This document shows positions 14,282 through 29,879 of a stretch of DNA of 64,000 nt, piece after piece. Positions within the stretch are counted from its first letter, which is position 1. Each line of letters starts with the position of its first letter. The position numbers and the translations under genes were made by a program. The notes under the pieces were generated by a model. The model saw only the letters and a program-made list of their open reading frames with translations. It was not told the DNA's origin and did no database searches. The stretch is from an uncultured Clostridia bacterium (GTDB lineage: Bacteria > Bacillota > Clostridia > Christensenellales > Borkfalkiaceae), in assembly GCA_944367465.1 (NCBI GenBank), contig CALVWO010000001.1:6758-70757 (forward strand). The letters run 5' to 3'.

Positions 14282-16811
14282 ACCAACTCTTTCCGACGGA
14301 AACATCCGCGATCAGCGGGACATCCAGCCTTATCGCCGCCTCCATTTCTTCTTTCAGCATATTTTTTGCGTACTCTGCCTCGCCTTCCGGAGCGTCGAGC
14401 ACAAGCTCGTCGTGCACCTGCAAGACAAGCTGCGCGCGGGAGCCGTCTTTTTTCAGCCTGTCGTGTACACGGAGCATGGCGATTTTAATGATGTCTGCAG
14501 CGCTGCCCTGCAAAGGCATGTTCATGGCGGCGCGCTCCCCGAACATCCGCTGGTTATAGTTTCCGGATTTGAGCTCCGGGATAAACCGTTTGCGTCCGAG
14601 CACCGTTGTAACGAACCCGTCCTCCTTGGCGCGGCGGACGTTCTCCTCCATATAAATCTTCACCTCGGGGTGCGCGGCAAAATAGGCGTCGATATACCGC
14701 TGCGCCTCATCGGGCGGGCAACCGAGATCCTTTGCCATACCGAAAGCGCTCATGCCGTAAATGATGCCGAAATTGATCGTCTTTGCCCGCCGGCGCATGG
14801 AGGGCGTAACTTCCGCAAGCGGCGTATGAAAAAGACGCGCCGCCGTTGCCGCATGGATATCTTCGCCCGCCCCGTATGCCTCGCGCAATGCCTTACACCC
14901 TGAAAAATGCGCCAGAAGACGCAGTTCGATCTGGGAATAGTCCGCGTCGATGAGGATATTTCCTTCGCGGGCAATAAAAAGTTTCCTCAGTTCCCTGCCC
15001 ATCTCCGTACGGACGGGGATATTCTGCAGGTTCGGATTCGCGCTCGAAAGACGCCCGGTCGTCGTCATCGTCTGATTGTACGTCGTATGCACGATGCCGT
15101 TTTTCACGAGGGGGCGGATGCCGTCCACATAGGTCGACTGAAGTTTCTGTACCTCTCTGTATTGCAGGATAAGCCGTGCGATCTCATGATCCTCGGCAAG
15201 TTTTTCCAGAACCTCCGCGCTCGTGGAATATCCGCCGCGAATGTTCTTTTTAACGCCTTTAGCGCTGTATCCAAGCTTTTCGAACAGCACTTCGGAGAGC
15301 TGGAACGGAGAATTCAGATTAAAGGGCGCAACGCCTGCAATTTCAAAAATGCGTGCGGAAAGCTCTGCCATCGCACCCTTGAATTTTTCCGAAAAAGCAG
15401 AGAATTTGTTGATATCCACCCTTACGCCCGTGCGCTCCATTTCAAAGAGCACCTGCGAGAGCGGAAGTTCCAGTTCACGGTAGAGTTTCTCCTCCGCCGT
15501 GCCGCGCGTCTGTTCCAGCGCATCGCGGTATGCGCGTGCAAGCGCACAGGCGCAGCAGTCCTCCGGCATGGAATAATCCTGCGCAAACGCCTTCGCTCCC
15601 GAAGGCCGCAGGTTGGAATCGATAAGATAACGCAGGAGCGTAACATCCTCCACGCGGCACGACATCGCGATCCCTGCCCCGTCAAGAAGGTGCGCGATTG
15701 CCTTGTAATCGGCAAGAACGGCGAGTTTATCCCGCTGAAAGAGGGCTGTCAGCAGCGGTTTGAGCTCTTCCAGGAAAAATCCGGGTTCAAGAAAGTTCGT
15801 ACGCAGCGGGAACAGATACTCTTTTCCGTCGATCGCAAGGTGCAGTCCGTCCGATTCCACACACAGAGAAAACTCCGTGCATGCCTCGGCATCCTTTACG
15901 CGGTCGTTGAACTCGTCCGACGTACAGGTATGACATGTCAGTTCGTATGCCTGCTCTTTCGGGAAATATTCACTTCCGACCAGCGAACGGAATTCAAGTT
16001 TTGCAAACGACCTGCGCGCCTCCTCGGGGAAGGGAATGCGAAGCATGCAGTTTTCCAGCGAAATATCGAGCGGGACATGCGTATCGATCGTCGCAAGCGT
16101 TTTTGAAAGACGCGCCTCCGCCTCGTGCTCCGTCAGTTTTGTTTTCAGCGACGCGGAACATTCGTCGAGATGGGCGTACACACCGTCAAGATCGCGGTAA
16201 GACTGCAGCAGCGAGAGCGCGCTTTTCGGACCGATCCCCTTCACGCCCGGGATATTATCGGAACTGTCGCCCATCAACGCCTTGAGCTCAATGACCTGCC
16301 ACGGTTCGATACCTTCGTGCTCCGTAAAATTATCCTTTGTAAGGCGTATAAGATCGCTCACGCCGCGCTTCGTAAAGCAAACGCTCACGTGTTCGCCGAT
16401 GAGCTGATAGGAATCTCTGTCGCCCGTATAGATAAGGGAATCGACGCCCTCGAATTTTTTAGAGAGCGTTCCGATGAGATCGTCTGCCTCGTACCCCTCT
16501 TTTTCAACGATACAGATATCCATCGAACGGAGCAGGTCTTTCAGAACGGGCACCTGTACGACAAGTTCTTCCGGCATAGGTTTACGCGTACCCTTGTAAT
16601 CAGGATATAATTTATGGCGGAAGGTCGGAGCATGCAGGTCAAACGCGACGGCGATGTATTTCGGATTTTCGTCGTCGATGATCTTTAAGAGCAGTTTGAC
16701 GAAACCGAAAATGCCGTTCGTCGGGAGTCCGTCTTTTGTAGTAAACACGCTCATTGCATAAAATGCGCGGTTCAAAAGGCTGTTGCCGTCGATGAGAACA
16801 AGTTTATCCAT
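14268..16811 (-). CDS. polA: DNA polymerase I
   Basis: Start MDKLVLIDGNSLLNRAFYA (5'-nuclease domain). Polymerase motifs DYSQIELRLLAH and QVHDELVLD. Confidence 0.95.
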   Translation of the reverse strand: MDKLVLIDGNSLLNRAFYAMSVFTTKDGLPTNGIFGFVKLLLKIIDDENPKYIAVAFDLHAPTFRHKLYPDYKGTRKPMPEELVVQVPVLKDLLRSMDICIVEKEGYEADDLIGTLSKKFEGVDSLIYTGDRDSYQLIGEHVSVCFTKRGVSDLIRLTKDNFTEHEGIEPWQVIELKALMGDSSDNIPGVKGIGPKSALSLLQSYRDLDGVYAHLDECSASLKTKLTEHEAEARLSKTLATIDTHVPLDISLENCMLRIPFPEEARRSFAKLEFRSLVGSEYFPKEQAYELTCHTCTSDEFNDRVKDAEACTEFSLCVESDGLHLAIDGKEYLFPLRTNFLEPGFFLEELKPLLTALFQRDKLAVLADYKAIAHLLDGAGIAMSCRVEDVTLLRYLIDSNLRPSGAKAFAQDYSMPEDCCACALARAYRDALEQTRGTAEEKLYRELELPLSQVLFEMERTGVRVDINKFSAFSEKFKGAMAELSARIFEIAGVAPFNLNSPFQLSEVLFEKLGYSAKGVKKNIRGGYSTSAEVLEKLAEDHEIARLILQYREVQKLQSTYVDGIRPLVKNGIVHTTYNQTMTTTGRLSSANPNLQNIPVRTEMGRELRKLFIAREGNILIDADYSQIELRLLAHFSGCKALREAYGAGEDIHAATAARLFHTPLAEVTPSMRRRAKTINFGIIYGMSAFGMAKDLGCPPDEAQRYIDAYFAAHPEVKIYMEENVRRAKEDGFVTTVLGRKRFIPELKSGNYNQRMFGERAAMNMPLQGSAADIIKIAMLRVHDRLKKDGSRAQLVLQVHDELVLDAPEGEAEYAKNMLKEEMEAAIRLDVPLIADVSVGKSWYDAK

Positions 16812-16906
16812 ATTCTTATTGTAACACGCCGCGCAGTTTTTTGCAAGGAAATCGCAAAAATCGCTTGCCTTTTCCATATAATTATACTATACTAATATAG
16901 CATTTT

Positions 16907-16993
16907 GCCGCTGTGGTGGAATTGGCAGACGCGCTGGACTCAAAATCCTGTGGTAGTGATACCGTATCGGTTCGACCCCGATCAGCGGCACCA
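16907..16993 (+). tRNA. tRNA-Leu(CAA), intact; its 3' 55 nt lie inside the attL repeat
   Basis: Acceptor GCCGCTG/CAGCGGC plus ACCA. Anticodon loop CTCAAAA. Long variable arm. T-arm GGTTCGACCCC. Confidence 0.85.
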
Positions 16994-17031
16994 TCTAAAT
17001 TCGGTCATTTTTGAGCTGTTTCGCTTAAAAA
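16939..17031 (+). repeat. attL: 93-bp direct repeat (tRNA-Leu from the anticodon loop to the 3' end, plus 38 nt downstream)
   Basis: Identical to 35248-35340 by base-by-base comparison. Imperfect similarity continues for about 55 nt further (…TTTCAGC[A/G]AATTGAAATATATAGCAT). Confidence 0.9.
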
Positions 17032-17467
17032 TGGTCGTTTTTTTTCTTTTTTTCAGCAAATTGAAATATATAGCATAATTCACATTTCCCCAATTTTCCC
17101 CAATCACCGAAAATCCGTTTTTGCTCCCGCACCTTTCCTTGGGTGCGGTTTTGATTTTCTGCGCCGGCACCGCGCCCTGGAAGAACCGCGGCGCGGCGGG
17201 CGGCGCCGCTCCCCTCTCTTCCTGATCGGCGCCATAGGGATAACCGCTTGCAGGACATTCCGCGACCCTCGGGCGCAGTCCTGATCTATCCGCTTGCGCG
17301 GGCGCGCCCGCGCCGTGCTGCAAATCCAAGCCGCCCGCCGATCGGACGATTCCGGGGGAACGCAGCGAGCACATAACACGCCCTGCGGGCGGCTTCCGAT
17401 CTTTCCTTCGTACGGACGGGGGCGGAGCGCCGTCCTATGATTACAGAATACTTAGATACTATACTTA

Positions 17468-17514
17468 TAGTGTCTGTTTTTGATTGCTTTTTCAAAGAGT
17501 AGTGTCTGCTTTTG
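17468..17514 (+). repeat. Direct 15-mer repeat pair TAGTGTCTG(T/C)TTTTG (iteron-like)
   Basis: Copies at 17468-17482 and 17500-17514 match at 14 of 15 positions. They lie in a 650-bp non-coding stretch next to the rep-like gene. Confidence 0.6.
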
Positions 17515-17579
17515 CGCGCGTTAGCGGCGAATCGTGAGCGCGCGAAAAGTATCAAATTCGGACAGTAATCAGGACATAG

Positions 17580-17610
17580 GAAACGGCGCTCCGATGCGGA
17601 GCGCCGTTTC
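17580..17610. repeat. Perfect 14-bp stem hairpin with no flanking T-run
   Basis: GAAACGGCGCTCCG, loop ATG, CGGAGCGCCGTTTC. Confidence 0.7.
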
Positions 17611-17698
17611 TCAAAAACCCGGGTCAGATCACACGACGATAAGCGCGATCGCTCGCGCTTTTCTTTTTATTCAGTTCGCCTGCACTTTCTTATATCCG

Positions 17699-18742
17699 TC
17701 ATGTTCGCCGCCTCCCCCTTTTCTCGGGATAGCAGTCGCACAAATGACCGTCCGGAAGATAGCCTGTATCAGAGCACTTCGGACATATATATTTCGGCTC
17801 CAGATCTTCGAACGTCATGTTCATGGCTGTCAGACGCTCGGCTTTGACGGCAGCGGCGATCTTCTGCTTTCGGATCAGCTCCTGCAAGCCCGGAAGCGAG
17901 AACGCCTCCGCTTTGCCGATTCGGATATCCAGACTGCGATACTCCCGTTCTGCGTCTGCAAAGCGGGCGTCCTCCATAGCCCGTGCCCGCATTTCCTCCG
18001 CGCGGCTTGTGGCGGCGTTTCGGCGCAAAGCATAGAATCTCTCTCGCTCCGCTCTCGCATCCGCGTTCCGCGTTCTTTCGTCTTTGCCTTTTGCGCGCCT
18101 GACGATCTCCTCGCGCTTTGCGCGCAGGAGCTTTCCGTTGACATGGAATTTTGCCCGTTGGTAGTTGTTTCTTGCCGCGCCCTCAACGTATACGAGCCCC
18201 ATCGCCTTCAGGCGGTCGATACTCTTGATGACGGTATCCTTCCCGAACGGCAGGCGGCGCGCGATCCCGCGGCAGGATCCCGACCATGCCTTTTTGTTCT
18301 TGGAGAATGAAATGAGATAGCTTAGCACAAGGACTTCGTTCTTCGTCAGATAGCGCAGCACGCCGTCCGCCTCGAATTGCGCATGATAGAGCCACTCCTC
18401 GATGTATAAATACGGCTCGTCCTCTTTGATCCCTTTGCTCTGATACTCATGCACGTTATCCCCGCGCTCGGCGAGATCGTTATCCAGGACGACGCGGATG
18501 GCACGCGATACAGACGCGCGGGAGATGCGGTATCGCTTGTTGAGCTCGGAATATGTAAAATCGCTCTTATGTCCATCGGCGGAAAAACTGAAAATGGCAG
18601 AGCACACCAAAAGCGCGGCACCGCAGAGCTTTCGCTCGCGCCCGTTCCGCATGACCGTGCGTCCCATAAGACTGTACGGGACGCGCACAAACCCGCTGTG
18701 CGAGCCTCCCGCCCGATTTAATTTTTCCGCCGTATTCATCAT
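17699..18742 (-). CDS. Replication initiator/organizer-like DNA-binding protein (two wHTH-like segments plus a C-terminal zinc ribbon)
   Basis: 347 aa. Contains YRISRASVSRAIRVVL and CRGIARRLPFGKDTVIKSIDRLKAMGLVYVEG. An R/A/E-rich coiled stretch is followed by CPKCSDTGYLPDGHLCDC, which resembles the N-terminal zinc ribbon of DnaI/DnaC-type loaders. No AAA+ motifs. Confidence 0.5.
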   Translation of the reverse strand: MMNTAEKLNRAGGSHSGFVRVPYSLMGRTVMRNGRERKLCGAALLVCSAIFSFSADGHKSDFTYSELNKRYRISRASVSRAIRVVLDNDLAERGDNVHEYQSKGIKEDEPYLYIEEWLYHAQFEADGVLRYLTKNEVLVLSYLISFSKNKKAWSGSCRGIARRLPFGKDTVIKSIDRLKAMGLVYVEGAARNNYQRAKFHVNGKLLRAKREEIVRRAKGKDERTRNADARAERERFYALRRNAATSRAEEMRARAMEDARFADAEREYRSLDIRIGKAEAFSLPGLQELIRKQKIAAAVKAERLTAMNMTFEDLEPKYICPKCSDTGYLPDGHLCDCYPEKRGRRRT

Positions 18743-18871
18743 AGCATTTTCCTCTCAATATCCCTTGCTGCGGGGCTTTCCCGCCCCGCGCGGGATATTT
18801 CGTTCGTTCCCGTTTCTGGGAATGGGGCGGGTCTTACGCGCCCGCTATACGCTTTTTTTCAAAGTCCGCGA

Positions 18872-19264
18872 TTACGAAAGTATTCTGCGGAGCGTTTGTT
18901 CGACGTCGGCGCGATACGCGCTTTGCAAGCGATAGACTGCCGACTGATCTTCAAACCGTTCCGCTACTTCCGCGACCCTCTCCGCGATCCATTGCACCGC
19001 GTCCGCATAACTCGTTTTGCCGCTGAACTCCACTTCTCGAAAATAAGCTTCGGGATCGATAGTCTCGCCGCATACTTTCCGCACGAAGAACTCCGTTTTT
19101 ACCTCGTCTATCGTGCTTTGGATGCGAATCTGATATCCGACATGCTCATACCAAAGCGATATCCATGTTTCAAACCTCTGCCCGTTGAACGTCCAATTAT
19201 GGTTGTTCCTGTCCACCGTCTTGATAATCTGCCTCGTGAGCTTCGCCCTTGCCTTTTCCGTCAT
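18872..19264 (-). CDS. Hypothetical protein (element)
   Basis: 130-aa ORF co-directional with and upstream of the rep-like gene. No recognisable motif. Confidence 0.5.
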   Translation of the reverse strand: MTEKARAKLTRQIIKTVDRNNHNWTFNGQRFETWISLWYEHVGYQIRIQSTIDEVKTEFFVRKVCGETIDPEAYFREVEFSGKTSYADAVQWIAERVAEVAERFEDQSAVYRLQSAYRADVEQTLRRILS

Positions 19265-19286
19265 ATTCGCATCTCCTTGTTTTATT

Positions 19287-19349
19287 CGTTTTGAATAATT
19301 ATATTACTCATTTTGAATAAAGTCAAGTATTATTTTTCATTTTGAATAA
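19287..19349 (+). promoter_or_regulatory. Three direct copies of (C)(A/G)TTTTGAATAA, putative operators in a divergent promoter region
   Basis: Copies at 19287-19298, 19309-19320 and 19338-19349. They lie between the minus-strand gene starting at 19264 and the plus-strand XRE gene. Confidence 0.55.
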
Positions 19350-19350
19350 A

Positions 19351-19569
19351 ATGAATTTTATGAATACTTTTTCGGAAAGGCTCACCGAACTGAGAAAAGA
19401 ACGCGGACTTACCTTAAAACAAGTATCAGCTGCGTTGTCTATTCCGCTTCAAACGTATGCTAATTATGAGCATGGAACCCGACAACCGCCAATCGAACTT
19501 ATTGTGGAAATCTGCAAATTTTATTGTGTTACATCCGATTATTTAATCGGGCTGTCTGACAGCTATTAA
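19351..19569 (+). CDS. XRE-family HTH regulator (Cro/CI-like)
   Basis: Contains FSERLTELRKERGLTLKQVSAALSIPLQTYANYEHGTRQP. The track start at 19342 is TTG; the first ATG is at 19351. No clear SD, so the mRNA may be near-leaderless. Confidence 0.8.
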   Translation: MNFMNTFSERLTELRKERGLTLKQVSAALSIPLQTYANYEHGTRQPPIELIVEICKFYCVTSDYLIGLSDSY

Positions 19570-19765
19570 TCTGCGCTTTAATAATCTCTTCGGCGGTTTC
19601 CCCGTATATATTTGCAAGGACAAGAACTTGTTCTATCCCAATTTTTCTGTTGCCATTCTCATAATTTGAAAATCCCGAGACGCTCACACCCAAAGCGGCG
19701 GCGACGTCGGCACGGGTCTTTCCGCTCTGTTCCCGCAACTCTCGCAAAGTCATCCCATCGTTCAT
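19529..19765 (-). CDS. XRE-family HTH regulator
   Basis: 78 aa. Contains MTLRELREQSGKTRADVAAALGVSVSGFSNYENGNRK. Convergent with the previous gene; their 3' ends overlap by 41 nt. Confidence 0.8.
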   Translation of the reverse strand: MNDGMTLRELREQSGKTRADVAAALGVSVSGFSNYENGNRKIGIEQVLVLANIYGETAEEIIKAQINSCQTARLNNRM

Positions 19766-19794
19766 ACTCCTACCTCAAACGCCTGTACGGACGT

Positions 19795-20010
19795 TTATTC
19801 TTTTTTCAAGTACAGCTTGCCGTCGGTGCAGCCGATCACGCCGGCGGACATCAGTTTTCCGACATTATAGGTGACCGTGGATCGGGAACAACCCAGGCGG
19901 CGCGCGATATCCTCAAAGTCCACGCGGCGCGCGCCCTCCGCAAGCTCGTCCGCAAGCAGACAATACAGCCGCGTTTCGTAGTTCTCCAGCCTCGTGATCG
20001 CGCCATCCAT
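19795..20010 (-). CDS. Small winged-helix DNA-binding protein
   Basis: Start MDGAITRLE at 20010, preceded by GGAGGGG. Contains FEDIARRLGCSRSTVTYNVGKLMSAGVIGCTDGKLYL. The longer track ORF is probably a 5' over-extension. Confidence 0.65.
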   Translation of the reverse strand: MDGAITRLENYETRLYCLLADELAEGARRVDFEDIARRLGCSRSTVTYNVGKLMSAGVIGCTDGKLYLKKE

Positions 20011-20187
20011 CGTTCCCCTCCTTCCGGCGGCTCCACCGCCGTTTTTTGCCGATTTTTCCCGATTTTCGCCCCCTCCTTCGGGGCGGCTCGAAAATCCGCT
20101 ATTCAGCGGATTTTCGAGAAATTCCATGCGGTACCTTCGCTTTCTCAGCACCCGCGCGACAAAGCCGCGCGGGATTTAGTACCGCCG

Positions 20188-20338
20188 TCCGTTTATTTTC
20201 TGCGCGATTTTGAAAGTAATGACAAAATTTTCAAACGAATTTCGCCCCATCGGGCGAAATTCGCCTTCGGTTCGTCTCGAATTTGAAAATTTTTAATGTC
20301 ATTCCTTCTTTTCAAAATCGCGCAAATACAAATAAACG
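20188..20338. repeat. 151-nt long imperfect inverted repeat (compound hairpin) in the intergenic region after the Zot-like ATPase gene
   Basis: Hand pairing found these stems: 20188-97 with 20329-38 (10 bp), 20201-14 with 20309-22 (14 bp), 20217-22 with 20297-302 (6 bp), and 20223-34 with 20281-92 (12 bp). There is also an inner perfect 11-bp hairpin, GAATTTCGCCC, loop CATC, GGGCGAAATTC (20236-20261). Confidence 0.85.
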
Positions 20339-20390
20339 GATAACAACACCGCTGCGCCGTTGATGCAGCCATGCTCCGCGTTACGCAATC

Positions 20391-21671
20391 TTACGCCGTG
20401 CGCCGTTTGGGCTTGTCGTCCTGATCGCGGACGCGCACTTCATCTTCGCCCACCAAAAGCGTTTCCCACGTCGCAAGATCGATGGGTTTATCCTTCGCCT
20501 GATACATTTTCCACCACGTTCTGCCATCGTAGTCCGCCATACCGCGGCGCGGAAAAATGTATGTACCGCGATCGAACACGGTACCCTGCCCGTTTGCTCC
20601 GCCATGCGTATACGGAATTTTCCGAAATCCGATCGTTTCAAGATATTTCTCTCGATAAAAATACTTTTCACCGATATACTGCGCCTTTTCACGGCTGATT
20701 TTGCCCTCTTGCAGCCGCCGAAAATAGCGATTTTTCTGCTTTTGAAAGATCTTCCACGCAAAATTCGGTGCCATGATCGTTTCCTGCCGCTGCAAATTGA
20801 TGTTATAATCCGTCACGCCGCGTATCTGGACGGCGTTTCCCGTCTCCCGCTGATCGGTATTGATCAACGTAAAGTCGCCGAAATGACGGATAAAACGATA
20901 TGTTGCCTGTTCTGCGAGCGACATATCCCGCGAACGGGACGCGCCGCTATCCAATCCCGATTCGTCCTTAAAAAGCACGGAATATTCGGGTACCCTCGTG
21001 ACCTGCGCCTCTACCTCGGGCGTCATAACGTAACTGAACCGCCCGAGAAGGTCGCGGAGCGGGATCGTAGAGACAAGACATGGAATATACCGCGCCTCCC
21101 GTTCTGCGTAGTAAATGTAGCTCTCTTCCAATGCCGCAAACTTTTCGATGGCGTCCGTGTTGCCCTCGAGCTTCCAGCGCGTCACCATGCCGTGTTGCAG
21201 GAAATAGTCGCTTTTCAGCTTCGCCCAACGGCTTGCAGCCACGGCGATCGCGATGTTTGCGCCACCAGAAAACGTCTTGCCACACCCCGGAACGCCCGTA
21301 AGCGTTACCACGCGCGCCGATCCGAGATAGTCCATCGCCTGAACGCGCGCGACGTTCTCGTAATATTTGCATCGGACAACGTTGACGAATGTTTTGATGA
21401 AAAACACCAGCGCGACGATCTGCACCACCAATGCGACGAGCCACAATACCACGTCCGCAATGAAGGAGACTTCCCACCGCCAACGGAAAAAGATCGAGAC
21501 ATCGAGAAAGGAATAGAGAAGATTCTGCCAGCCGTGATAATAATCCTTCGTCACGAAGTACGCTGCCACAAAAACCACGGCGGGAATGTAGTTATACCGC
21601 CTCGTGTTCTTGTACGGCTCCAAAAGCCGGGCTTGTTGCCGTGCAAACCACTCATCGCTGTGCGTTTTCAT
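20391..21671 (-). CDS. Zot/pI-like P-loop NTPase with an N-terminal transmembrane region
   Basis: 426 aa from ATG 21671. Two or three TM helices at roughly residues 30-100. Motifs in order: GVPGCGKT, STIPLRD, VLFKDESG, FIRHFGDFTLINTDQ. This order parallels the Zot/pI motifs GxxGxGKT, TN.., hhhDE, HRxxGxDhhhhTQ. Confidence 0.55.
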   Translation of the reverse strand: MKTHSDEWFARQQARLLEPYKNTRRYNYIPAVVFVAAYFVTKDYYHGWQNLLYSFLDVSIFFRWRWEVSFIADVVLWLVALVVQIVALVFFIKTFVNVVRCKYYENVARVQAMDYLGSARVVTLTGVPGCGKTFSGGANIAIAVAASRWAKLKSDYFLQHGMVTRWKLEGNTDAIEKFAALEESYIYYAEREARYIPCLVSTIPLRDLLGRFSYVMTPEVEAQVTRVPEYSVLFKDESGLDSGASRSRDMSLAEQATYRFIRHFGDFTLINTDQRETGNAVQIRGVTDYNINLQRQETIMAPNFAWKIFQKQKNRYFRRLQEGKISREKAQYIGEKYFYREKYLETIGFRKIPYTHGGANGQGTVFDRGTYIFPRRGMADYDGRTWWKMYQAKDKPIDLATWETLLVGEDEVRVRDQDDKPKRRTA

Positions 21672-21811
21672 AACCTTACCCCGACGAATACCCCGAGAAG
21701 GAATATGATCGCCGCGCACACCGCGATCAATACGACGACGTTGACCTTACGATCTGCGATCTTTTCCTTCTTTTTCGGTTGTTCCTGTTCCTTCTGTTCC
21801 CTGGTTTCCAT
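21668..21811 (-). CDS. 47-aa single-TM peptide, translationally coupled (ATGA) to the Zot-like ATPase
   Basis: Hand translation gives METREQKEQEQPKKKEKIADRKVNVVVLIAVCAAIIFLLGVFVGVRL. It is below the ORF-track size cutoff and fills the gap between neighbouring genes exactly. Confidence 0.55.
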   Translation of the reverse strand: METREQKEQEQPKKKEKIADRKVNVVVLIAVCAAIIFLLGVFVGVRL

Positions 21812-21814
21812 ATA

Positions 21815-23029
21815 TCACAAGTATTTTTCGTAGCGGTCATCGATGGATGCGACAAATTCCTTGTCGTACTTATCGATGGGAACGCTCCAAGCGCTTTCCA
21901 ATGCGTTCCAATGCCATCCGCGTTTCTTCAACGCGTAAATGAGCTGCGGTTTCGGGCGTGTGGTGAACTTGATGAATACGCGCTCGCCCGCGTCGATCCG
22001 CTTGCGGTAAGCGTTCAGATTGTCCGTTTCGAGGAGTTTCTGCGCCTTCGGCGCGCCCTGATAGGTGCCCGCCTTGATCTTGTCGTAGATCTTCGCCGCC
22101 GTCGTGTTCTTGCGGAAACGGTATTTTTTATCCATTTCGTCGTAAAGTTCGACAAACCGCGCGGGATCGTACTGCGCGATGGGCGTCAAAGCGTTTGCGA
22201 TCGTCGTGGGCGATGTGAACCACCCGCGCGCGAGAGCTTCTTTGAAATGCTCTTCTGCCCGTTTCGCATCCTTTGCGCTCGTATCCTCATATTGACGCTT
22301 GCTTTCTCTAACGCTCTCTTCGATCTTTTCGAACCACGTCACAAAATCATGCGCGTCGCGGAGGATCTGTTCGCTCTTGTCGTATTTTTTCGCATTGTAT
22401 CGCGCCGGTCCCGCAACCGTGATGGGAACATGCTGTGCTTCGAGCGAAAGTTTACGCGTCCAACGCTTATGGATCTGATCGATGATCTGCTGTTTTTTGC
22501 TGTCTGCAATATCCCAGCCCAAAACCCGATTAACGTAACGCTGATAATCCCGCGCGGAATTATCGCCGCGATTGAACATGCTGTTCCCGTTTGCCGTTTC
22601 AATGTCCCGCCGGTTCAGCTCGGGGATCACGACGGTGCTTTTCTGTTCGGCGGGCTGTGTCTCCCGTTTCATCGGCGCGGTGAGTTCCGTTTTTCCCCCG
22701 CTCACGACCGGAACGAGCAAAGCAGATACTGCTTTCGGGAGCGCCGCCTGCGGCTTTCTCGGCTCCAAAATGGGGCGCATAGGAGCGGAGGCAGTCTTTT
22801 TCTTCGAGGACTTCTTGCCCTTTGACTTCCCTTCTTTCCGGCGAGCACGCTCCTCCTTGCGATACGCGTTCCACGCCGCCCATGCCTCGCGCGGGCTCAT
22901 ACCGGATGTACTCATCCCGACACCCTCCAAAAGCCCGTACGGACGGCGCCTTAGGTCGCTTTTGACTTGCAGCATGCGGAGCTGCGTCGCCTGCTCCTCT
23001 TTTTCCTCCTCTTTAATGACTTTTCTCAT
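21815..23029 (-). CDS. Hypothetical 404-aa protein: Lys-rich N-terminal region plus a helical C-terminal domain
   Basis: Start ATG at 23029 (MRKVIKEEEKEE), preceded by GGAGGGG; the track start at 23065 is TTG. Contains KEGKSKGKKSSKKK and C-terminal LKKRGWHWNALESAW. Confidence 0.6.
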   Translation of the reverse strand: MRKVIKEEEKEEQATQLRMLQVKSDLRRRPYGLLEGVGMSTSGMSPREAWAAWNAYRKEERARRKEGKSKGKKSSKKKTASAPMRPILEPRKPQAALPKAVSALLVPVVSGGKTELTAPMKRETQPAEQKSTVVIPELNRRDIETANGNSMFNRGDNSARDYQRYVNRVLGWDIADSKKQQIIDQIHKRWTRKLSLEAQHVPITVAGPARYNAKKYDKSEQILRDAHDFVTWFEKIEESVRESKRQYEDTSAKDAKRAEEHFKEALARGWFTSPTTIANALTPIAQYDPARFVELYDEMDKKYRFRKNTTAAKIYDKIKAGTYQGAPKAQKLLETDNLNAYRKRIDAGERVFIKFTTRPKPQLIYALKKRGWHWNALESAWSVPIDKYDKEFVASIDDRYEKYL

Positions 23030-23058
23030 GGATATGCCCCTCCGTTTTTCAAATTCTA

Positions 23059-23087
23059 TTGACAAACTTACAGAAATTGCGTATAAT
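23059..23087 (+). promoter_or_regulatory. Perfect sigma-70 consensus promoter (TTGACA, 17-nt spacer, TATAAT) pointing against the minus-strand operon
   Basis: TTGACA at 23059-23064, 17-nt spacer, TATAAT at 23082-23087. No credible plus-strand ORF lies downstream. Confidence 0.6.
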
Positions 23088-23178
23088 GCTTATAGAAAGG
23101 TTTGTGTCTCCCTCAATATCGGGGTTGCAGACGCGGGGCTATGGACGAATCAGGTTTCGGGCAGCCGCCTTTCTTTTT

Positions 23179-23514
23179 TTATTGCCCTTTTTTCCGCAGC
23201 CGTTCGATAAGTTCCCACACGACAGCTTTATCTTCCGCCGATAAGCCAAGACCATCCAGCTGTTTTCCGTATAATTTTGCCTGTTCCTGCGTAATTTTCG
23301 GGCGCACGTATGCCTGTTTTTCGTCCTTCGGGTTCGGATTCTTTTTCAAAGGAATATTATTGACTCCTTTCGTCCGTTTTCCGTGAGTCACGCCCAGACT
23401 TTGTAATTTACTGCCCGTCATGCCGAAAACATATTGCAAATGACCTTTGGCTTCTTTGGTGTTCAGCTTTCGGAACTCATCCAGATTTTTTGTTTTTTTC
23501 CTTCGCTTGCTCAT
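23179..23514 (-). CDS. Small highly basic protein (element)
   Basis: 111 aa, K/R-rich (MSKRRKKTKNLDEFRKL...). No motif recognised. Confidence 0.6.
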   Translation of the reverse strand: MSKRRKKTKNLDEFRKLNTKEAKGHLQYVFGMTGSKLQSLGVTHGKRTKGVNNIPLKKNPNPKDEKQAYVRPKITQEQAKLYGKQLDGLGLSAEDKAVVWELIERLRKKGQ

Positions 23515-23556
23515 TTTTGCATCCCCCCTGCCTTCATTTCCGCTGGCAGGGTTTTC

Positions 23557-23979
23557 CTATTTCTTTTTGGAGACAGGCTTTTCGGCGAATCTTGTGCGTT
23601 TTGCCTTAGCCTTTTTCGCTGCTTCCTCTCGGTTCATGGCGTCGTACTCTCGTGCGACAAGGTGCCGATACACCTCATGCCGCTTTTCCCCATCCCATTT
23701 TTTGACCTTATCTTTGCCATAGATCTTGCCGAGCATATCGCCCTGCGTAGCGATATTCATATAGGCTCCGTCCACGACCCGCAAAGCGTCCGTATAGTTG
23801 CTTCTCTTCCACTTCGGAATATCGTGCGACGCGCTGTTTGCGGCTTCTCTCATATTGTCGAGAGAGCTTTTCCCATAGCCGCGCACCTTGGGCGCAAAAC
23901 ACCAGCGGATCTCTTGGCGGATGATCTCCTTTGCCTTCTTCGTATTCGATCTTACGGGTTTACTTGCCATTTCCCTCAC
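23557..23979 (-). CDS. Small basic protein (element)
   Basis: 140 aa, K/R-rich at both ends (..SKPVRSNTKKAKE.. and ..AAKKAKAKRTRFAEKPVSKKK). Confidence 0.6.
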   Translation of the reverse strand: MREMASKPVRSNTKKAKEIIRQEIRWCFAPKVRGYGKSSLDNMREAANSASHDIPKWKRSNYTDALRVVDGAYMNIATQGDMLGKIYGKDKVKKWDGEKRHEVYRHLVAREYDAMNREEAAKKAKAKRTRFAEKPVSKKK

Positions 23980-24302
23980 CTCTTGCCTTCGATTTTTCTG
24001 ACGGTAATACCGCTTTTCGCAATCCTGCGCATATTCTCGGGGGTCTGATCGTAATACAGCCGCTCTTCTGTTCGGACATAGCGCCCGGGCGCGTTCTCGG
24101 ATGTCACACGCGTCACGACGATCTTATTCTTCGTCGCCCCCACGGCAGTAGCGTTCGCCAACGCCGTTCCGATGGGGACGGCTGCTTCGTTCCTCCGCTT
24201 CTTCGGGGCGGGTGCTGCACTGCCCTTCTTGTTCACGGGAACCGTAACGGCTTTTGCAGCCTTGCTCCCCACATTGCACTTTCTGCTCTTCGTCTTATCC
24301 AT
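23976..24302 (-). CDS. Small basic protein (element)
   Basis: 108 aa. Contains MDKTKSRKCNVGSKAAKAVTVPVNKKGSAAPAPKKRRNE. ATGA overlap with the next gene. Confidence 0.6.
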   Translation of the reverse strand: MDKTKSRKCNVGSKAAKAVTVPVNKKGSAAPAPKKRRNEAAVPIGTALANATAVGATKNKIVVTRVTSENAPGRYVRTEERLYYDQTPENMRRIAKSGITVRKIEGKR

Positions 24303-24332
24303 ATTTCACCTCTTATCCCTTTTCAGGGTTTT

Positions 24333-24710
24333 TTACTTTTTCTTGATCTCCAAAATTACTTTCACGACAATAAATACGACCATGATCACGGCAAATCCTA
24401 TGAGCGAATAGCCGATCCACGGCACGAACGGCGCGCAGACTGCATATTTTTCGCCCAGCCAACGGAATAGAACGTATACCGCGCCCGTGATCGCCGTCGC
24501 AATGATGGGCGCCACGATGGATACATTCCCAGTGCGGAACGCCTTCACGACCTTCACGATCACCATGACCGCCTCCACCGCAAGCAACGCGTACATAACA
24601 TAGTTGCACCACGGGAGCGCCGCCGTCAGATTCTCGTACTCCTTCGAAAGATATTCCAGCAATACGCGCACCGCAAGCGCCAACACCGTTAAACATACAG
24701 ACCAGATCAT
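24333..24710 (-). CDS. Polytopic small membrane protein (about 4 TM)
   Basis: 125 aa, almost entirely hydrophobic helices, ending in KKK. Starts 1 nt after the stop of the 652-aa gene. Confidence 0.7.
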   Translation of the reverse strand: MIWSVCLTVLALAVRVLLEYLSKEYENLTAALPWCNYVMYALLAVEAVMVIVKVVKAFRTGNVSIVAPIIATAITGAVYVLFRWLGEKYAVCAPFVPWIGYSLIGFAVIMVVFIVVKVILEIKKK

Positions 24711-24711
24711 C

Positions 24712-26670
24712 TTACTTCTCCTTTGCCGCTCCGAGCCCGATCCCTACAAGGCTCACCAATGCCACCCCGGCGAGGATCGCAACCAATGCCCAATCAAAAT
24801 TCCCCGAAATCACAGGAGGCGTATAAGGATTTATGATATCGATGGGGTCGGCTACGACGGGAATGACCGTTAAATTTCCACCATCATTAAACGTTAGTTG
24901 GATAATATCAAAATTCAGGAATATCGTCTGCTGGGCAATATAAGCATTATTTGTAGATGACTTTATACTATCATTTCCCAACGCACTTCTTTTTTCCCAT
25001 TCGCGCAACTGAGCTGATTCGCTGCGATAATCTGTTACTGCAAATCGAAAAAATACCAGCGTTTTTTCCTGTCTTTTCGCTTCGTTGTATGCCGCCCTGA
25101 TTTTTTCGACGTCTGCAACCTGACACATCAGATTGTCCGAAATATTTTCCGGTGTCCCTGCAAAATCCGATTCTTTCGGGAAATAGATCGGTGCAAATTC
25201 TCGTCCCGTTTCGTCTGGAATCTTTCCAAATAACGTATTCCACAGTCCAAAATCTTTTACATTATCCCACCATGAGGGATCCGTATCGTCCCATGAGACC
25301 ATTTCCTGAATATCGGCGTCGATATCGAAGTCATAGCGGGAAATTCCGTCAAAACCGCTTTGCACAATGCCACTTGCATTATTCACTTTGCGGCTCCCGT
25401 CGATATCCCGTTCGAACAAATCGGCGCTGATCGCCTTTTCTTTCACGTTCACTGTACCGTTTTCAAATGAGCGGTCATAGCTGTATATGTAATTTTCGAT
25501 AGCGTTCCGCATGATCCCGCCCTGAGATTGAATATCGGCATACGGGTCATACGAATCTATATCTACTCCATTGGTATTAAAAATTAAATATAATGCTTCC
25601 ATAGGAGTATCTACCGGATCTTCCGGATCATAAGTAGCATTCCATACAAACCCATCCATTTTGCTGCTCACATAGCTACCAAACGACCAAAGAATACTCT
25701 CGTCAAAATATCCTTCGCGTCCAACACCGTAACTCTGAAACCATTCAGATATCCACGGTAATTGTTTTCCAATATAGTTGCTAATCCCATTATAAAATGA
25801 ATCTTCACTTGTTATTAAAGCGGGCTTGAGCTTGAACTCGTACCATTCTGCCATAATACGTTGGAGTTTCCCGTACTCCTCGAAATATCGGTCAGGCACG
25901 GTAAAATACACGGTATCCAACTGATTTTGATGTCCTGAACCAAGAGAGGACGACATTGTCCTCCAAAATGTATGCTCTACATCGAGGCTGATCGTATCGA
26001 GCTTTTCCTCCGCGATTTGAAGCGTGCTTTCTGCCTCTTTATCCGCTCCGCAGCCCTTGCTGTATCCCGTGCAGCGGTATGTCCTGCCCTTCTCTTCGTT
26101 TGCCGAATTGGAATCCGTTGCGTTTGCATCGCCCGAAAACCAAAGCTGGATCCCCGCGATATCGTAGCGGCGTACGCCATCATGCGCGGCAGCATATACC
26201 TTTGCGCGGTCGTATGCGCCCGCGCTGTTCGTCAGCTTGAATTTATAGATCAGATGATCGTCCGTATAATCCAGGATCGTGATCGCGCAGTTTGCATACT
26301 CTGTCGGTTCGCCCTCCGTATCGTATGCCACCGCCATATTCACGACATTCGCGCCCGTACGGGAAGATACTTCCCGCCCCGTGGGGTTGTACACATAGAA
26401 ATAGATCCCGAAATAATCCTCCGCCACCGACGCGTCGCTGCTGTATGCGTACTCCATGAATCCCGCCTCGTCGATCAGGCGATGCCGCCCGTTCCCGTCT
26501 TTGGCATATACGGAGAGATCCACCGAGGCGAGATCCTGCTCGATTGTCGTCTGATCGTATTGTGTGAGCGCATCCGTGAGCGTGGCGGTTGCGGGCGCGG
26601 CGCCCACGCCGAACCCGATCCCCGCCGATAAAATACACGCCGATGCAGTTTTGAAAATTTGTTTTATCAT
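24712..26670 (-). CDS. Large exported protein with an N-terminal signal peptide and a C-terminal TM anchor (spike/adsorption-protein-like topology)
   Basis: 652 aa. N-terminus MIKQIFKTASACILSAGIGFGVGAAPATA. C-terminus NFDWALVAILAGVALVSLVGIGLGAAKEK. Rich in D/Y/W/N; no family recognised. Confidence 0.65.
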   Translation of the reverse strand: MIKQIFKTASACILSAGIGFGVGAAPATATLTDALTQYDQTTIEQDLASVDLSVYAKDGNGRHRLIDEAGFMEYAYSSDASVAEDYFGIYFYVYNPTGREVSSRTGANVVNMAVAYDTEGEPTEYANCAITILDYTDDHLIYKFKLTNSAGAYDRAKVYAAAHDGVRRYDIAGIQLWFSGDANATDSNSANEEKGRTYRCTGYSKGCGADKEAESTLQIAEEKLDTISLDVEHTFWRTMSSSLGSGHQNQLDTVYFTVPDRYFEEYGKLQRIMAEWYEFKLKPALITSEDSFYNGISNYIGKQLPWISEWFQSYGVGREGYFDESILWSFGSYVSSKMDGFVWNATYDPEDPVDTPMEALYLIFNTNGVDIDSYDPYADIQSQGGIMRNAIENYIYSYDRSFENGTVNVKEKAISADLFERDIDGSRKVNNASGIVQSGFDGISRYDFDIDADIQEMVSWDDTDPSWWDNVKDFGLWNTLFGKIPDETGREFAPIYFPKESDFAGTPENISDNLMCQVADVEKIRAAYNEAKRQEKTLVFFRFAVTDYRSESAQLREWEKRSALGNDSIKSSTNNAYIAQQTIFLNFDIIQLTFNDGGNLTVIPVVADPIDIINPYTPPVISGNFDWALVAILAGVALVSLVGIGLGAAKEK

Positions 26671-27704
26671 ATTTCATTCAGCATTTCAAAAAGTGTATTG
26701 ATCTCTGCCCGCGTCAATCCGTCCTGACGATTGCTTTCGGCATAATCCAAAATTGCTTTTATTGCATTCACGGTCGGATGCTGACGATCCGTTTCCGACA
26801 ACTCCGGATACCGCTCGTTTCCGATTTCTATCAACATTCTAAATTGAGCCATTGCTATCCCATCGGGATCCCCGGTTACAACAGCAAGTTCATCATCCGA
26901 CAAATCGGAATATATTTTCAAGATGCCGGTCATCAATTCCTTGATCGAGGAGACAAACTCCTGCGCATCTTGCGACATTGCAGGCACTTCCGGTTCCTCG
27001 GGTTCCTCGGGTTCCTCAGGTTCCTCAGGTTCCTCCGGCTCTTCCGGTTCCTCGGGCTCTTCCGGTTCTTCCGGCTCCTGCCCGCTGCCGTCTCCGAAAA
27101 TGATATGATCCGGATCGAGAATAATACTCTCCGGCGCGGTGGAGAACGTGACCGTAATGCTGTACCCGTTCGCTGCCGTCACCGTCATGGCGAACTTGTC
27201 TGCGACCGTGTCCGAGACACCGTCCTCAAGCGTGACCGTGTTCCCCTTTGCCCCAGCGATGATCTCATCCAGCGCACCGTATTCCACTGTAAATCCCGTC
27301 GCCGCGCGCGTGATCGTAAATCCCGCCGTGAAATCATCTCCCACAACGTTGCTCCACTTATACGGTTCCGCCCCGAGCGTGAACCCGAAATCCTCTGCCG
27401 CCGCGCGGGCGGTCATCGTCACGGTATAATCCGTACCAAAATCCGCTCCCACGGCGTATGTGATTCCGGAGGAAAGTCCCGTCACGCCGCCGTCGCCGTA
27501 TTTCATGCCGTCCAGCTCGATATAATAATTCCCCGTGATCGTGCCGGGATCCTTTCCGGGGGTCTCCGGGTCTTCCTTCTGCCACGGGAACTTCGTGAAT
27601 CCGTCCGTATAATACCATGCCGCATAGATCCCCCCTGCCAATGCCCCAAGCATTACAAGGATCAGCACGATGAGAAAAAATTTCCTGCCGCCGTTCTTTG
27701 CCAT
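26667..27704 (-). CDS. N-terminally anchored membrane protein with a (PEE)n linker
   Basis: 345 aa. N-terminus MAKNGGRKFFLIVLILVMLGALAGGIYAAWYY. Contains EPEEPEEPEEPEEPEEPEEPEEPEEPE and an alpha-helical C-terminal domain. Confidence 0.65.
   Translation of the reverse strand: MAKNGGRKFFLIVLILVMLGALAGGIYAAWYYTDGFTKFPWQKEDPETPGKDPGTITGNYYIELDGMKYGDGGVTGLSSGITYAVGADFGTDYTVTMTARAAAEDFGFTLGAEPYKWSNVVGDDFTAGFTITRAATGFTVEYGALDEIIAGAKGNTVTLEDGVSDTVADKFAMTVTAANGYSITVTFSTAPESIILDPDHIIFGDGSGQEPEEPEEPEEPEEPEEPEEPEEPEEPEEPEVPAMSQDAQEFVSSIKELMTGILKIYSDLSDDELAVVTGDPDGIAMAQFRMLIEIGNERYPELSETDRQHPTVNAIKAILDYAESNRQDGLTRAEINTLFEMLNEI
26987..27079 (-). repeat. About 10 tandem 9-bp units encoding the (PEE)n tract
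   Basis: The plus strand reads TTCCTCGGG, TTCCTCAGG and CTCTTCCGG variants in tandem. The repeat is coding low-complexity sequence. Confidence 0.85.
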
Positions 27705-27767
27705 CTTTCCACCTCTCGTCTTTTCGTCTGGAGCGGGACTTCCGGCGCCCGCTATACCTTCCTTGTC

Positions 27768-28814
27768 TTAAAAAACCAAAGAGCTATCCGAAAGAGAAAC
27801 ATCCTCGACAGGAGTATAAAGATGCCCTACGGAATACGACATCGTTTTTGTGAATTTATCCGAACTCATGATAACGCCGTCATATTTCAGATTAAATGAA
27901 ACGCTTACATAAATTGCATCCGAGTTATCCGGAATATTCAGAACGTTATATGCCGTGGAATCATATTCAAAAGTGAACAAACGTGTATGTAAATCTTCAA
28001 AACTGCAATTCGCATAATAGCCGCCGTTCTTTTCAAAAATATGTGATTCCTCGATTACAGGCCTCTCATAGTAAGCAGCTATATCAGAATGTGCCTCAAG
28101 AAATTCCTCTGTTAATCCAACTTCAAATCTGGTCACCTCGATTTCAGGATCAACAGTCCCGTCGGTATATTTAAAATCCCGAAACTCAAATGTTGTCGGA
28201 TAACCAGGCGAATCGGTAAATCCAAAAAGAACCTTATCAAAACCGGGACCATCAGTCCTTGAAAATCCAAAATTTAACTCGGAAGTAATGCGTTTCATAT
28301 AATCCACAAAACAATTTGCTTTTATTTCAAGATTTTCATCGCACGCAACAGTTACAACAATGGGCTCACTAAATGCTCCTTTGCACTCTACGTTTGCCGT
28401 ACGCGAACCTTCAGCCGTTGGAGTAACCGTCACATAGTTCGTGACCGATTTACCCGTTGCCCACGATGAAGATGGATTAGAAAACGCCACCGTCCAAACC
28501 ACCGCTTGATTTTCTGCATCTGAAGGCGTGATCGTCGCCGTAATCTGATATGCGCTTTCCGCCATGGGAGAAATGCCATTTTCCTCGTAGTCCTCCGCGG
28601 CGATCTTCGTCGACATCATTTCAATGCCGTTGCTTTCGCCTTCACCGATAATCGCTCCGCCCGTTTCGGGAGTTTCTGTCTGTTCTCCGCTGCCGAACCA
28701 ATTCCGGGCATGCGCGAACCAGCCGACCAGCCCACCGCCGACACCGATCGCAAGTGCCAAAAGAATACAGCCGATCGCCTTCACCGCCGTCTTTCCGTTA
28801 CTTTTCGTTTTCAT
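27768..28814 (-). CDS. N-terminally anchored membrane protein with a bacterial Ig-like (Big_2-type) segment
   Basis: 348 aa. N-terminus MKTKSNGKTAVKAIGCILLALAIGVGGGLVGWFAHARNWF. Contains YQITATITPSDAENQAVVWTVAFSNP...VTVTPTAEGSRTANVECKG. Confidence 0.6.
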   Translation of the reverse strand: MKTKSNGKTAVKAIGCILLALAIGVGGGLVGWFAHARNWFGSGEQTETPETGGAIIGEGESNGIEMMSTKIAAEDYEENGISPMAESAYQITATITPSDAENQAVVWTVAFSNPSSSWATGKSVTNYVTVTPTAEGSRTANVECKGAFSEPIVVTVACDENLEIKANCFVDYMKRITSELNFGFSRTDGPGFDKVLFGFTDSPGYPTTFEFRDFKYTDGTVDPEIEVTRFEVGLTEEFLEAHSDIAAYYERPVIEESHIFEKNGGYYANCSFEDLHTRLFTFEYDSTAYNVLNIPDNSDAIYVSVSFNLKYDGVIMSSDKFTKTMSYSVGHLYTPVEDVSLSDSSLVF

Positions 28815-28840
28815 CTTCCAGATCCTCGCTTATGATTGAT

Positions 28841-29173
28841 TCATTCCGATCTCACGGCATCACACGCAGCTTCGTCCGCAGGTTCCTGTCCGTCGTCCGG
28901 CGTCTGTTGTTCGCCCTCTTCCCCGTCCGGCGTTTCGTCTGGGAGCTGCTCTTCCTGCCCGTCGTCCGGCGTCTGCTGTTCGCCCTCTTCCCCGTCCGGT
29001 GTTTCGTCCGGGAGCTGTTCTTCCTGCTGCTCTCCACCGATCCCGAACCGCGTCCAATCCCGATACCAGTTCGTACAGAACCCCAGAATCACCGCGATCA
29101 TTGCCGCAAGAATCAGGATCCCGAGTACAATCAGAACCCCGTTCCCGCCGTTCGTCTTTCTGCCTTGTGCCAT
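28841..29173 (-). CDS. N-terminally anchored small acidic-repeat protein
   Basis: 110 aa. N-terminus MAQGRKTNGGNGVLIVLGILILAAMIAVILGFCTNWYRDW. A 23-aa unit, EEQLPDETPDGEEGEQQTPDDGQ, occurs twice. Confidence 0.65.
   Translation of the reverse strand: MAQGRKTNGGNGVLIVLGILILAAMIAVILGFCTNWYRDWTRFGIGGEQQEEQLPDETPDGEEGEQQTPDDGQEEQLPDETPDGEEGEQQTPDDGQEPADEAACDAVRSE
28883..29026 (-). repeat. 69-bp tandem duplication (2.1 copies, 5 mismatches) inside the acidic-repeat gene
   Basis: Unit 1 is 28883-28951 and unit 2 is 28952-29020, aligned by hand. A third unit starts with TTCCTG. Confidence 0.85.
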
Positions 29174-29243
29174 TGTTCTCTCCTTCCCGTCTGATACGGT
29201 TCTTATATTTTTCCGCTATGCGCCTCTTTTCCCCTGCGCGTTC

Positions 29244-29348
29244 CTATACGATCCATCCCAGGATGACCGCCGCGTATGCAATGCCGCACGCTGCCAGCAC
29301 CGCACATACGCCCACCCACTTCATTACCGCTCTCCACGTCTCTCGCAT
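29244..29348 (-). CDS. Very small single-TM peptide (start uncertain: 34 or 26 aa)
   Basis: MRETWRAVMKWVGVCAVLAACGIAYAAVILGWIV. The 62-aa track version overlaps the upstream gene by 47 nt, so an internal ATG (29348 or 29324) is preferred. Confidence 0.4.
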   Translation of the reverse strand: MRETWRAVMKWVGVCAVLAACGIAYAAVILGWIV

Positions 29349-29385
29349 CTCCTTCAGGGCGGGATTCCGCTCATATCTCACCTCC

Positions 29386-29613
29386 TCACAGATACTTCCC
29401 TGCGAGCCGCAGCAGCTCGCGCGCCGCTTCAAAATTTACTTTGATGTTCCCGCAGTCATCGCTGATCGCCTCGTTCACCGCTGCCGCAAGTTCGCTCAAC
29501 GCCTCGTCCAACCGCTTGGCGGTCGTCACAAGCTGCGGACGCTCCTTTTGGAAATTCACGAACGCGATAAACTCCTCCTGCCCCATCTCTACCGTCACGC
29601 GCATGCCGTTCAT
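29386..29613 (-). CDS. Small hypothetical protein, paralog of 30115-30345
   Basis: 75 aa from ATG 29613, with an ATGA overlap on the upstream stop. N-terminus MNGMRVTVEMGQEEFIAFVNF resembles MITVQMTREEYERFQAF. Confidence 0.55.
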   Translation of the reverse strand: MNGMRVTVEMGQEEFIAFVNFQKERPQLVTTAKRLDEALSELAAAVNEAISDDCGNIKVNFEAARELLRLAGKYL

Positions 29614-29879
29614 CCGCTCACCTCTCCCCGCATGCGGGGATCTGCCTCTGCGGATCCGCACGCCTGCAAGATCTCTCCGTCCCCGTTTCCGGGGATAACG
29701 TTCGGAAGCCGATACAGCAGATACACATAGCGCCGATCTCTCATGAATGCGGCACCGTGTGCATGCAATACCGTAATTGTCTGCGTCAGCTTGTCGTACC
29801 GTAAAACGGGAAACCCATCGGGCAGCGCCGCGATATCCTTTTCGTCAAGTTCCCACAATAAAATGCTGATCGTTTTCAT
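29610..29879 (-). CDS. Small hypothetical protein (element)
   Basis: 89-aa ORF with 4-nt overlaps at both ends with its neighbours. Confidence 0.5.
   Translation of the reverse strand: MKTISILLWELDEKDIAALPDGFPVLRYDKLTQTITVLHAHGAAFMRDRRYVYLLYRLPNVIPGNGDGEILQACGSAEADPRMRGEVSG

Follow-up and report, generated by a model that had tools for sequence, protein, structure and literature searches.

The window analysed here, the whole 64-kb stretch of 64,000 nucleotides, carries an 18.3-kb integrase-bearing element at tRNA-Leu(CAA), bounded by a 93–114-bp direct repeat that overlaps this tRNA gene. The left attachment repeat (16939–17052) overlaps the 3′ half of tRNA-Leu(CAA) (16907–16993), the right one lies at 35248–35361, and a tyrosine integrase gene (33984–35117, + strand) is located just inside the latter. 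Along the − strand, the element reads as a promoter, ~19 genes, an ATPase gene, a 380-nt gap containing a large hairpin, a winged-helix gene, a convergent pair of XRE genes, and a replication protein gene. The promoter (32595–32623, − strand; TTGACA-17-(TG)TATAAT) matches the consensus at 12/12 positions, includes an extended −10 TG, leads into an 11-kb late operon of which the ATPase gene is the last member, and is divergent from an XRE repressor-like gene (32669–33022). Together, this promoter and the divergent XRE gene look like the main lytic switch of the element, and the transcript closed by the hairpin probably starts at this point.

About 70% of the proteins encoded by the element are without annotation. 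None of the ~19 late-operon genes had a Pfam or PHROG match, and no capsid, tail, terminase, or transfer genes were recognisable in the element. The replication protein consists of a winged-helix and a DnaI/DnaC-N-terminal-like part, and no HUH, rolling-circle Rep, or relaxase match was obtained among the ORFs tested against Pfam, PHROGs, and NCBIfam. The coding-sense strand is A/G-rich with 21% T, compared to 35% in M13, a base composition that speaks weakly against a single-stranded genome. In one metagenome, an 18,073-nt contig (L048) has overlapping ends and a gene order (rep, integrase, xre, late operon) that is a circular permutation of that of the prophage, from which we conclude that the element occurs as a free circle; the integrase/att segment of this contig differs from that of the window. 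Several near-identical copies (see L039, L045, L046, and L049) carry a ~1.07-kb insert at the position equivalent to 18872 of the window, with a C5 DNA methyltransferase gene that is absent from the window copy. The element is an unclassified tail-less prophage of gut Christensenellales (Clostridia) whose family is seen only in uncultured gut Clostridia, and its host here belongs to a lineage of uncultured metagenome-assembled genomes.

The last gene of the late operon (20391–21671, − strand) encodes a 426-aa P-loop NTPase with the Walker A motif GVPGCGKT and N-terminal hydrophobic helices, which was assigned to no protein family. Its exact sequence was found in 140 blocks of a public assembly collection, and no relatives were found in IMG/VR, INPHARED, or PLSDB. 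This ATPase had been labelled “Zot-like” in an earlier note on this DNA, a label for which we found no support: six members of the ATPase family yielded no match to Pfam Zot at E ≤ 10, the ATPase had no match in PHROGs and no Zot match in NCBIfam, a PDB profile search returned generic P-loop matches only, and a direct hhalign comparison to M13 pI gave a probability of 1.8%. Likewise, an AF2 model of the protein (pLDDT 67) compared to BFVD by Foldseek retrieved nothing significant, with the best Zot match at rank 12 and an E-value of 0.32. One 46.7-kb contig (G025:C1) harbours two identical related ATPase genes (L007 and L020) 35,983 nt apart, which may reflect a tandem or concatemeric arrangement of the element, or the double assembly of a circular contig.

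The non-coding gap downstream of the ATPase gene spans 380 nt (20011–20390) instead of the 240 bp initially proposed, with the next gene most likely starting at ATG 20010, a start favoured because of its GGAGGGG ribosome site and of public gene calls (71 aa) on near-identical contigs. This gene (19795–20010, − strand), the first after the hairpin cluster, encodes a 71-aa winged-helix DNA-binding protein, and homologues of it lie downstream of the hairpin in 10 related loci. Besides the large hairpin, the gap includes a second small GC hairpin (20151–20173, − strand; CCCGCGCG, 7 nt, CGCGCGGG), which is kept in relatives L010 and L023, and a perfect palindrome with 13-bp arms (20087–20118; CTCGAAAATCCGC, 6 nt, GCGGATTTTCGAG) organised as an A-tract, a stem, and a T-tract, ~70 nt downstream of the large hairpin. 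An equivalent A-tract/T-tract palindrome with 13–15-bp arms was identified between the large hairpin and the winged-helix gene in every subgroup having this gene, and the one in relatives L004 and L037 is almost identical to that of the window even though their ATPase is only 53% identical, with a loop-closing pair that is C-G there and T-A here. Bidirectional termination and operator function are both conceivable roles for this palindrome. Further on, a canonical terminator (20025–20048, + strand; CGGCGG CTCCA CCGCCG then TTTTTTG) faces the convergent XRE gene. Finally, 6 of the 16 matches to AAAATCSSS in the 64-kb window fall within the 275 nt from 20048 to 20322, two of them in the hairpin stems; four of these boxes make up two inverted pairs, and the other two lie 10 nt apart as direct repeats. 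The cluster may be a protein-binding array. No DnaA boxes were found in the window.

The large hairpin itself is an imperfect inverted repeat of 153 nt (20188–20340), with the − strand as its sense strand. The structure had previously been described as a 151-nt hairpin ending at 20338, and while a repeat search of the window confirmed that it is real, it placed the end two bases further. This search delineated a perfect basal stem of 11 bp (20188–20198/20330–20340), 22-nt arms with 86% complementarity (20201–20222/20303–20324), a perfect 12-bp stem (20224–20235/20282–20293), and an apical hairpin (20236–20263, − strand; CGAATTTCGCCC/GGGCGAAATTCG) with a 4-nt CATC loop and a perfect stem of 12 bp, one more than the 11 bp paired by hand before. 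The 5′ arm, as read on the sense strand, has an asymmetric side branch (TTCGAGACGAACCGAAGG; 20264–20281, − strand), and a small side hairpin of the CCG-AAA-CGG type occupies the matching spot in two groups of relatives (groups B and C).

Folding of both strands with DNA and RNA parameters, the check suggested for this structure at the outset, indicated that it is strongly structured (z about −10 to −11). With DNA parameters, the predicted energies were −52.4 kcal/mol for the + strand and −56.1 kcal/mol for the − strand (z-scores of −10.4 and −11.2), and with RNA parameters −66.1 and −71.7 kcal/mol, respectively (z-scores of −11.2 and −10.6), with none of the 200 dinucleotide shuffles against which these scores were computed folding equally well. 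As RNA, the − strand is predicted to form coaxial stems of 11, 16, 6, 10, and 13 bp. Apical loops across the collected hairpins are mere palindrome centres, with no preference for GNRA or UNCG. A search of positions 16500–36000 with Rfam 15 covariance models at E ≤ 1 returned a tRNA as the sole match, hence the hairpin falls into no Rfam family.

An ORF across the hairpin (20193–20372, 59 aa) was rejected as coding, given the loss of its start codon and a frameshifting indel in L023 and L010, and a promoter within the hairpin would be represented by a single 9/12 match (TTGAAA-16-CAAAAT, 20234 to 20207), the recurrence of which was not seen by eye in the relatives inspected. Compared to 10 other copies that are ~99% identical, the window hairpin displays three clustered substitutions on the 3′ arm of the sense strand (20213, 20217, and 20225), which move the pairing register of the middle stem rather than break the pairing.

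The hairpin is present in a single copy in its own genome (G000), and a survey of 201 family genomes detected full copies only in G000 and G104, one each and within the same element, the remaining matches being chance matches of 19–50 nt. Searches of phage, plasmid, and IMG/VR databases with the hairpin and the ATPase matched nothing. When the 81 contigs of the 1.59-Mb assembly were all scanned with a crude seed-based method, this hairpin ranked first among inverted repeats; the other candidates were branched GC-rich folds and not hairpins, and no comparable inverted repeat was found. The single copy, the 201-genome survey, and the assembly-wide inverted-repeat scan rule out a MITE, an alternative raised in the earlier note: the copy-number check gave one copy per genome, and none dispersed.

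We then considered related loci, collected through their ATPase (24–97% identical), and identified a hairpin of 93–250 nt at the matching place in 22 of 24 loci. As the lineages are related to each other, counts across loci overstate the number of independent observations. For close relatives, a 170-nt window was slid and folded across each ~13-kb locus (n = 17, window included), with the sense strand alone folded in this first scan. The locus-wide minimum starts between −30 and +225 nt from the ATPase stop codon in 11 of these 17 loci. In five Borkfalkia-type loci, where the gene order is ATPase, o416, and a small basic ORF, the minimum lies 1.2–2.7 kb further on, the hairpin again being directly after the last ORF and 150–300 nt before a winged-helix homologue, and in L035 the hairpin is the second-best window, at offset 0. 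L025 is the sole close relative without a hairpin, and in its region 7113–8017 the winged-helix gene begins 9 nt after the ATPase stop codon, with a second winged-helix copy found after an o111-like gene; L025 may be a rearranged or defective element. Seven distant relatives (ATPase identity 24–30%) carry 93–200-nt hairpins that start 14–59 nt before the end of the ORF, such that the stop codon sits inside the 5′ arm, and no convincing hairpin was found at the ORF end of an eighth, L019. In L052 (4605–4760), homology to the element ends at the equivalent of position 20160 of the window and is followed by homopolymer-rich sequence and host genes; this junction has the appearance of an assembly error at the GC hairpin and was left out of the analysis.

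Position and shape are thus kept across these loci, and sequence is not. The hairpins cannot be aligned between subgroups, yet four subgroups unrelated in hairpin sequence share a common hairpin length of 153–154 nt, a hint that the hairpin may have a structural role or serve as a ruler. The only significant motif common to the subgroups is A-tracts, and AATAGC/TAGCG, present on the sense strand in 5–6 lineages, is not above a shuffle null. Within subgroups, pairing is maintained through compensatory changes: 13 of 45 pairs are changed on both sides in group DE, where 95.8% of cells remain paired (0 of 500 shuffles as good; 34–47% for slid controls), 13 of 43 pairs are compensated in group B, and one apical pair in group A is A:T in the window, T·G in L010, and C:G in L023. 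The conservation of the structure in syntenic relatives, proposed earlier as a test of function, is hence borne out, with compensatory pair changes where the sequence differs. Compared to L004 and L037, the window includes ~210 extra nucleotides between ATCCGTTTATTT and CTCGAAAATCC, indicating that this region turns over by insertion and deletion.

The hairpins also differ between their two strands. Because the first hairpin scan had folded the sense strand alone, each hairpin was aligned strand-symmetrically to its own reverse complement, and G·T and A·C pairs were counted in 13 hairpins that are roughly independent of each other. The coding-sense strand showed 28 G·T against 7 A·C pairs (binomial p = 5e-4), when base composition predicts a ratio of about 1:1. 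Similarly, in 19 of the 20 hairpins scored, it is the sense 5′ arm that carries the extra or bulged nucleotides, which are mostly A-rich; the window hairpin has 31 on this arm versus 2 on the 3′ arm. Both the G·T bias and the one-arm bulges argue against a symmetric duplex-DNA site. The G·T bias does not separate RNA from single-stranded DNA, however, since the DNA hairpin of the M13 packaging signal, hand-paired from its fold, likewise contains G·T pairs (5) but no A·C pair.

At its base, the hairpin does not resemble a terminator. At or after the 3′ base, T-runs do not exceed 1 nt in the window hairpin and 3 nt in the 15 others scored outside of L014–L017, four distant relatives which alone display T-runs of 5–7 nt and an A-run/T-run stem base. 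On both strands of the window, the 5′ side of the stem base is T-rich and the 3′ side A-rich, the reverse of a terminator. A terminator scan does not call the hairpin, and found canonical T-run terminators elsewhere in the element, on the + strand. With no U-tract, this hairpin is thus no canonical terminator, and the initial impression that it is far larger than a normal one holds.

Taken together, a hairpin that is real, single-copy, and kept in shape in almost all relatives points to a functional signal read on one strand. These sequence patterns are best explained by a conserved cis-acting signal that closes the late operon, an operon for particle and membrane proteins, on its 3′ side; the signal would operate in a single-stranded form of the coding-sense strand. 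As to the nature of this form, the reading we favour, with confidence somewhat short of even, is a hairpin in the 3′ UTR of the late polycistronic mRNA, functioning as a barrier, a processing site, or an insulator. We infer that the hairpin would then be transcribed and exert its effect at the RNA level, by forming a barrier or a site of processing. Several observations lead us to prefer this RNA reading: the hairpin tracks the end of the operon (i.e. the last stop codon) across gene-order changes rather than one particular gene, its structure is kept without sequence conservation and with covarying pairs, it is sense-strand specific (G·T bias and 5′-arm bulges), and the replicon looks double-stranded, based on the lack of a rolling-circle Rep, a sense strand that is not T-rich, and the C5 methylase of some copies. 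In silico, the 3′ region of the putative transcript includes a sense-strand duplex of at least 20 bp with internal loops.

Under this RNA reading, the late mRNA initiated at the promoter at 32595–32623 would end in the hairpin as a 3′-untranslated structure, the ~60-bp coaxial duplex of which would block 3′-to-5′ exonucleases and form a natural substrate for a double-strand RNase (RNase III). In this way, the hairpin may set and protect the 3′ terminus of the late message and keep this message insulated from the downstream co-directional regulator and replication genes, while the palindrome at 20087–20118, ~70 nt on, would supply the actual termination point. Such an insulator would be useful because the promoter, the 19 genes, the hairpin, the regulators, and rep are all co-directional. 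Stems of 45–70 bp, however, far exceed to our knowledge those of known bacterial mRNA 3′ stabilisers and terminators, which counts against an RNA role, as do the lack of a U-tract, loops without GNRA or UNCG preference, and the common length of 153–154 nt.

The main rival, which we regard as possible and tentative, is a signal in single-stranded DNA, on the same coding-sense strand, serving as a packaging signal for the adjacent membrane ATPase machinery, as in Ff phages, and/or as a complementary-strand priming site (an origin of the ssoA/palA type, for instance, or a site of primosome assembly). In its favour, a U-tract is absent, a length of 153–154 nt is shared by four unrelated subgroups, the hairpin is always beside the ATPase or late module, its size and form match ssoA (~160 nt, with a large strand-specific fold; PMC5703833), and an 18-kb circle of the element occurs in one metagenome. 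The structure also resembles the long DNA hairpins of filamentous phages, and its sense-strand specificity includes G·T pairs as in the M13 packaging signal. The positional analogy to Ff phages drawn in the earlier note gains from the same sliding-fold scan run on M13, where the genome minimum is the packaging-signal region, directly after the last morphogenesis gene (gene IV). An Ff-like nature of the element is not supported, as we found no Zot/pI match and no rolling-circle initiator, and the strand is not T-rich (21% T, against 35% for M13). Also against a single-stranded DNA signal are the lack of a relaxase, of ssoA motifs, and of relatives in IMG/VR or the phage database, together with a position that closely follows the last stop codon whatever the gene order, which a DNA signal would not need. 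With ~70% of the proteins unannotated, an unrecognised initiator is possible, and a packaging signal or minus-strand origin is accordingly a live minority reading, though not the best one. Its most specific version, namely the packaging signal of an undescribed, tail-less, and probably membrane-associated temperate virus family in which one DNA strand is recognised by the membrane ATPase machinery, seems unlikely to us. If true, it would mean that a functional analogue of the Ff packaging signal arose outside of the Inoviridae, and would imply DNA export by these elements, in single-stranded or hairpin-marked form.

A double-stranded DNA site, either a cruciform or an extended palindromic platform bound by the winged-helix protein for replication, partition, or packaging, is in our view improbable. 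It would account for the concentration of 6 of the 16 AAAATCSSS boxes in 20048–20322, with two in the stems, for the winged-helix gene being next in 10 loci, and for the second perfect palindrome conserved nearby. A symmetric duplex would not, however, be expected to display a 4:1 excess of G·T over A·C pairs or to have its bulges on one arm, as do 19 of the 20 hairpins scored; no DnaA boxes are present, and the hairpin sequence is unconserved between subgroups even where the winged-helix proteins are 40–70% identical. Quite improbable as well is a very strong, possibly bidirectional, intrinsic terminator, which would be consistent with a location directly after the last stop codon and with the A-run/T-run stem base of L014–L017, as in bidirectional terminators, but leaves aside the lack of a T-run in the window hairpin and 15 others, their reversed base composition, the canonical T-run terminators available elsewhere in the element, and a stem 4–10 times the length needed. 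A selfish or decaying palindromic insertion, i.e. a MITE-like relic without function for the element, could draw on the ~210 extra nucleotides relative to L004 and L037 as a sign of insertion/deletion turnover and is nonetheless highly improbable for a structure that is single-copy in its genome and dispersed in none of 201, syntenic down to 24% ATPase identity, and built of covarying pairs, with the 59-aa ORF across it unconserved.

Single, under strong constraint, strand-specific, and beside the only ATPase of the element, the hairpin provides the best experimental handle on the expression or packaging of such elements. If it acts as RNA, it would be a candidate for a new RNA motif, with a length unusual for a 3′ barrier or processing hairpin, and if it acts as DNA, it would represent the signal by which a new virus family is packaged or primed, and a single-stranded stage would be predicted. 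Either way, it can serve as a structural marker to recognise more members, as the strongest hairpin of the locus located directly after the last late gene.

Among known systems, ssoA is a strand-specific imperfect palindrome of ~160 nt (PMC5703833), to which the 153-nt imperfect and strand-specific palindrome described here is close in size, and the two occur in the same host phylum (Firmicutes). In ssoA/palA of rolling-circle plasmids and in sso1 of ICEBs1, activity is limited to one strand and one orientation, and structure outweighs sequence (PMC5703833, PMC4595007). The motifs that characterise ssoA, namely RSB (e.g. TTATGCCGAGAAAATTT) and CS-6 (TAGCGT) (PMC4598088), were both looked for: RSB had 0 matches in the window with up to 3 mismatches allowed, and CS-6 is absent from 20188–20340 as read from the sequence. 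Unlike for ssoA/palA, no rolling-circle initiator or relaxase was found here, and the hairpin is tied to the end of an operon whereas the position of sso is described as flexible.

In the Ff phages (M13/f1/fd) and other Inoviridae, the non-coding region that directly follows the last morphogenesis gene similarly holds a hairpin that is long and imperfect, strand-specific with G·T pairs, and unconserved in sequence between phages; by the same scan, it is the most stable fold of the M13 genome. The hairpin studied here is twice as long, however, and belongs to an 18-kb element in which no pI/Zot domain, pII-type Rep, or T-rich strand could be detected. Packaging signals of Xanthomonas inoviruses are only 20–26 nt (bioRxiv 10.1101/2023.12.30.573655).

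Integron attC sites offer another parallel, as imperfect hairpins located directly after an ORF in which structure matters over sequence and one strand is read. They differ in that attC sites come one per cassette when there is one hairpin per element here, and in that this element has no integron integrase, its own integrase using the 93–114-bp tRNA-Leu repeat.

Finally, mRNA 3′ ends can carry hairpins with a barrier or processing function, which include the RNase III sites of T7, the sib/tI retroregulation of lambda, the “positive retroregulator” of Bacillus thuringiensis cry, and REP/BIME elements. The ~60-bp stem described here is several times longer than these and has no match in Rfam, but shares with them a stable stem-loop placed past the last gene of an operon, interrupted by internal loops or bulges, and with no need for a U-tract.
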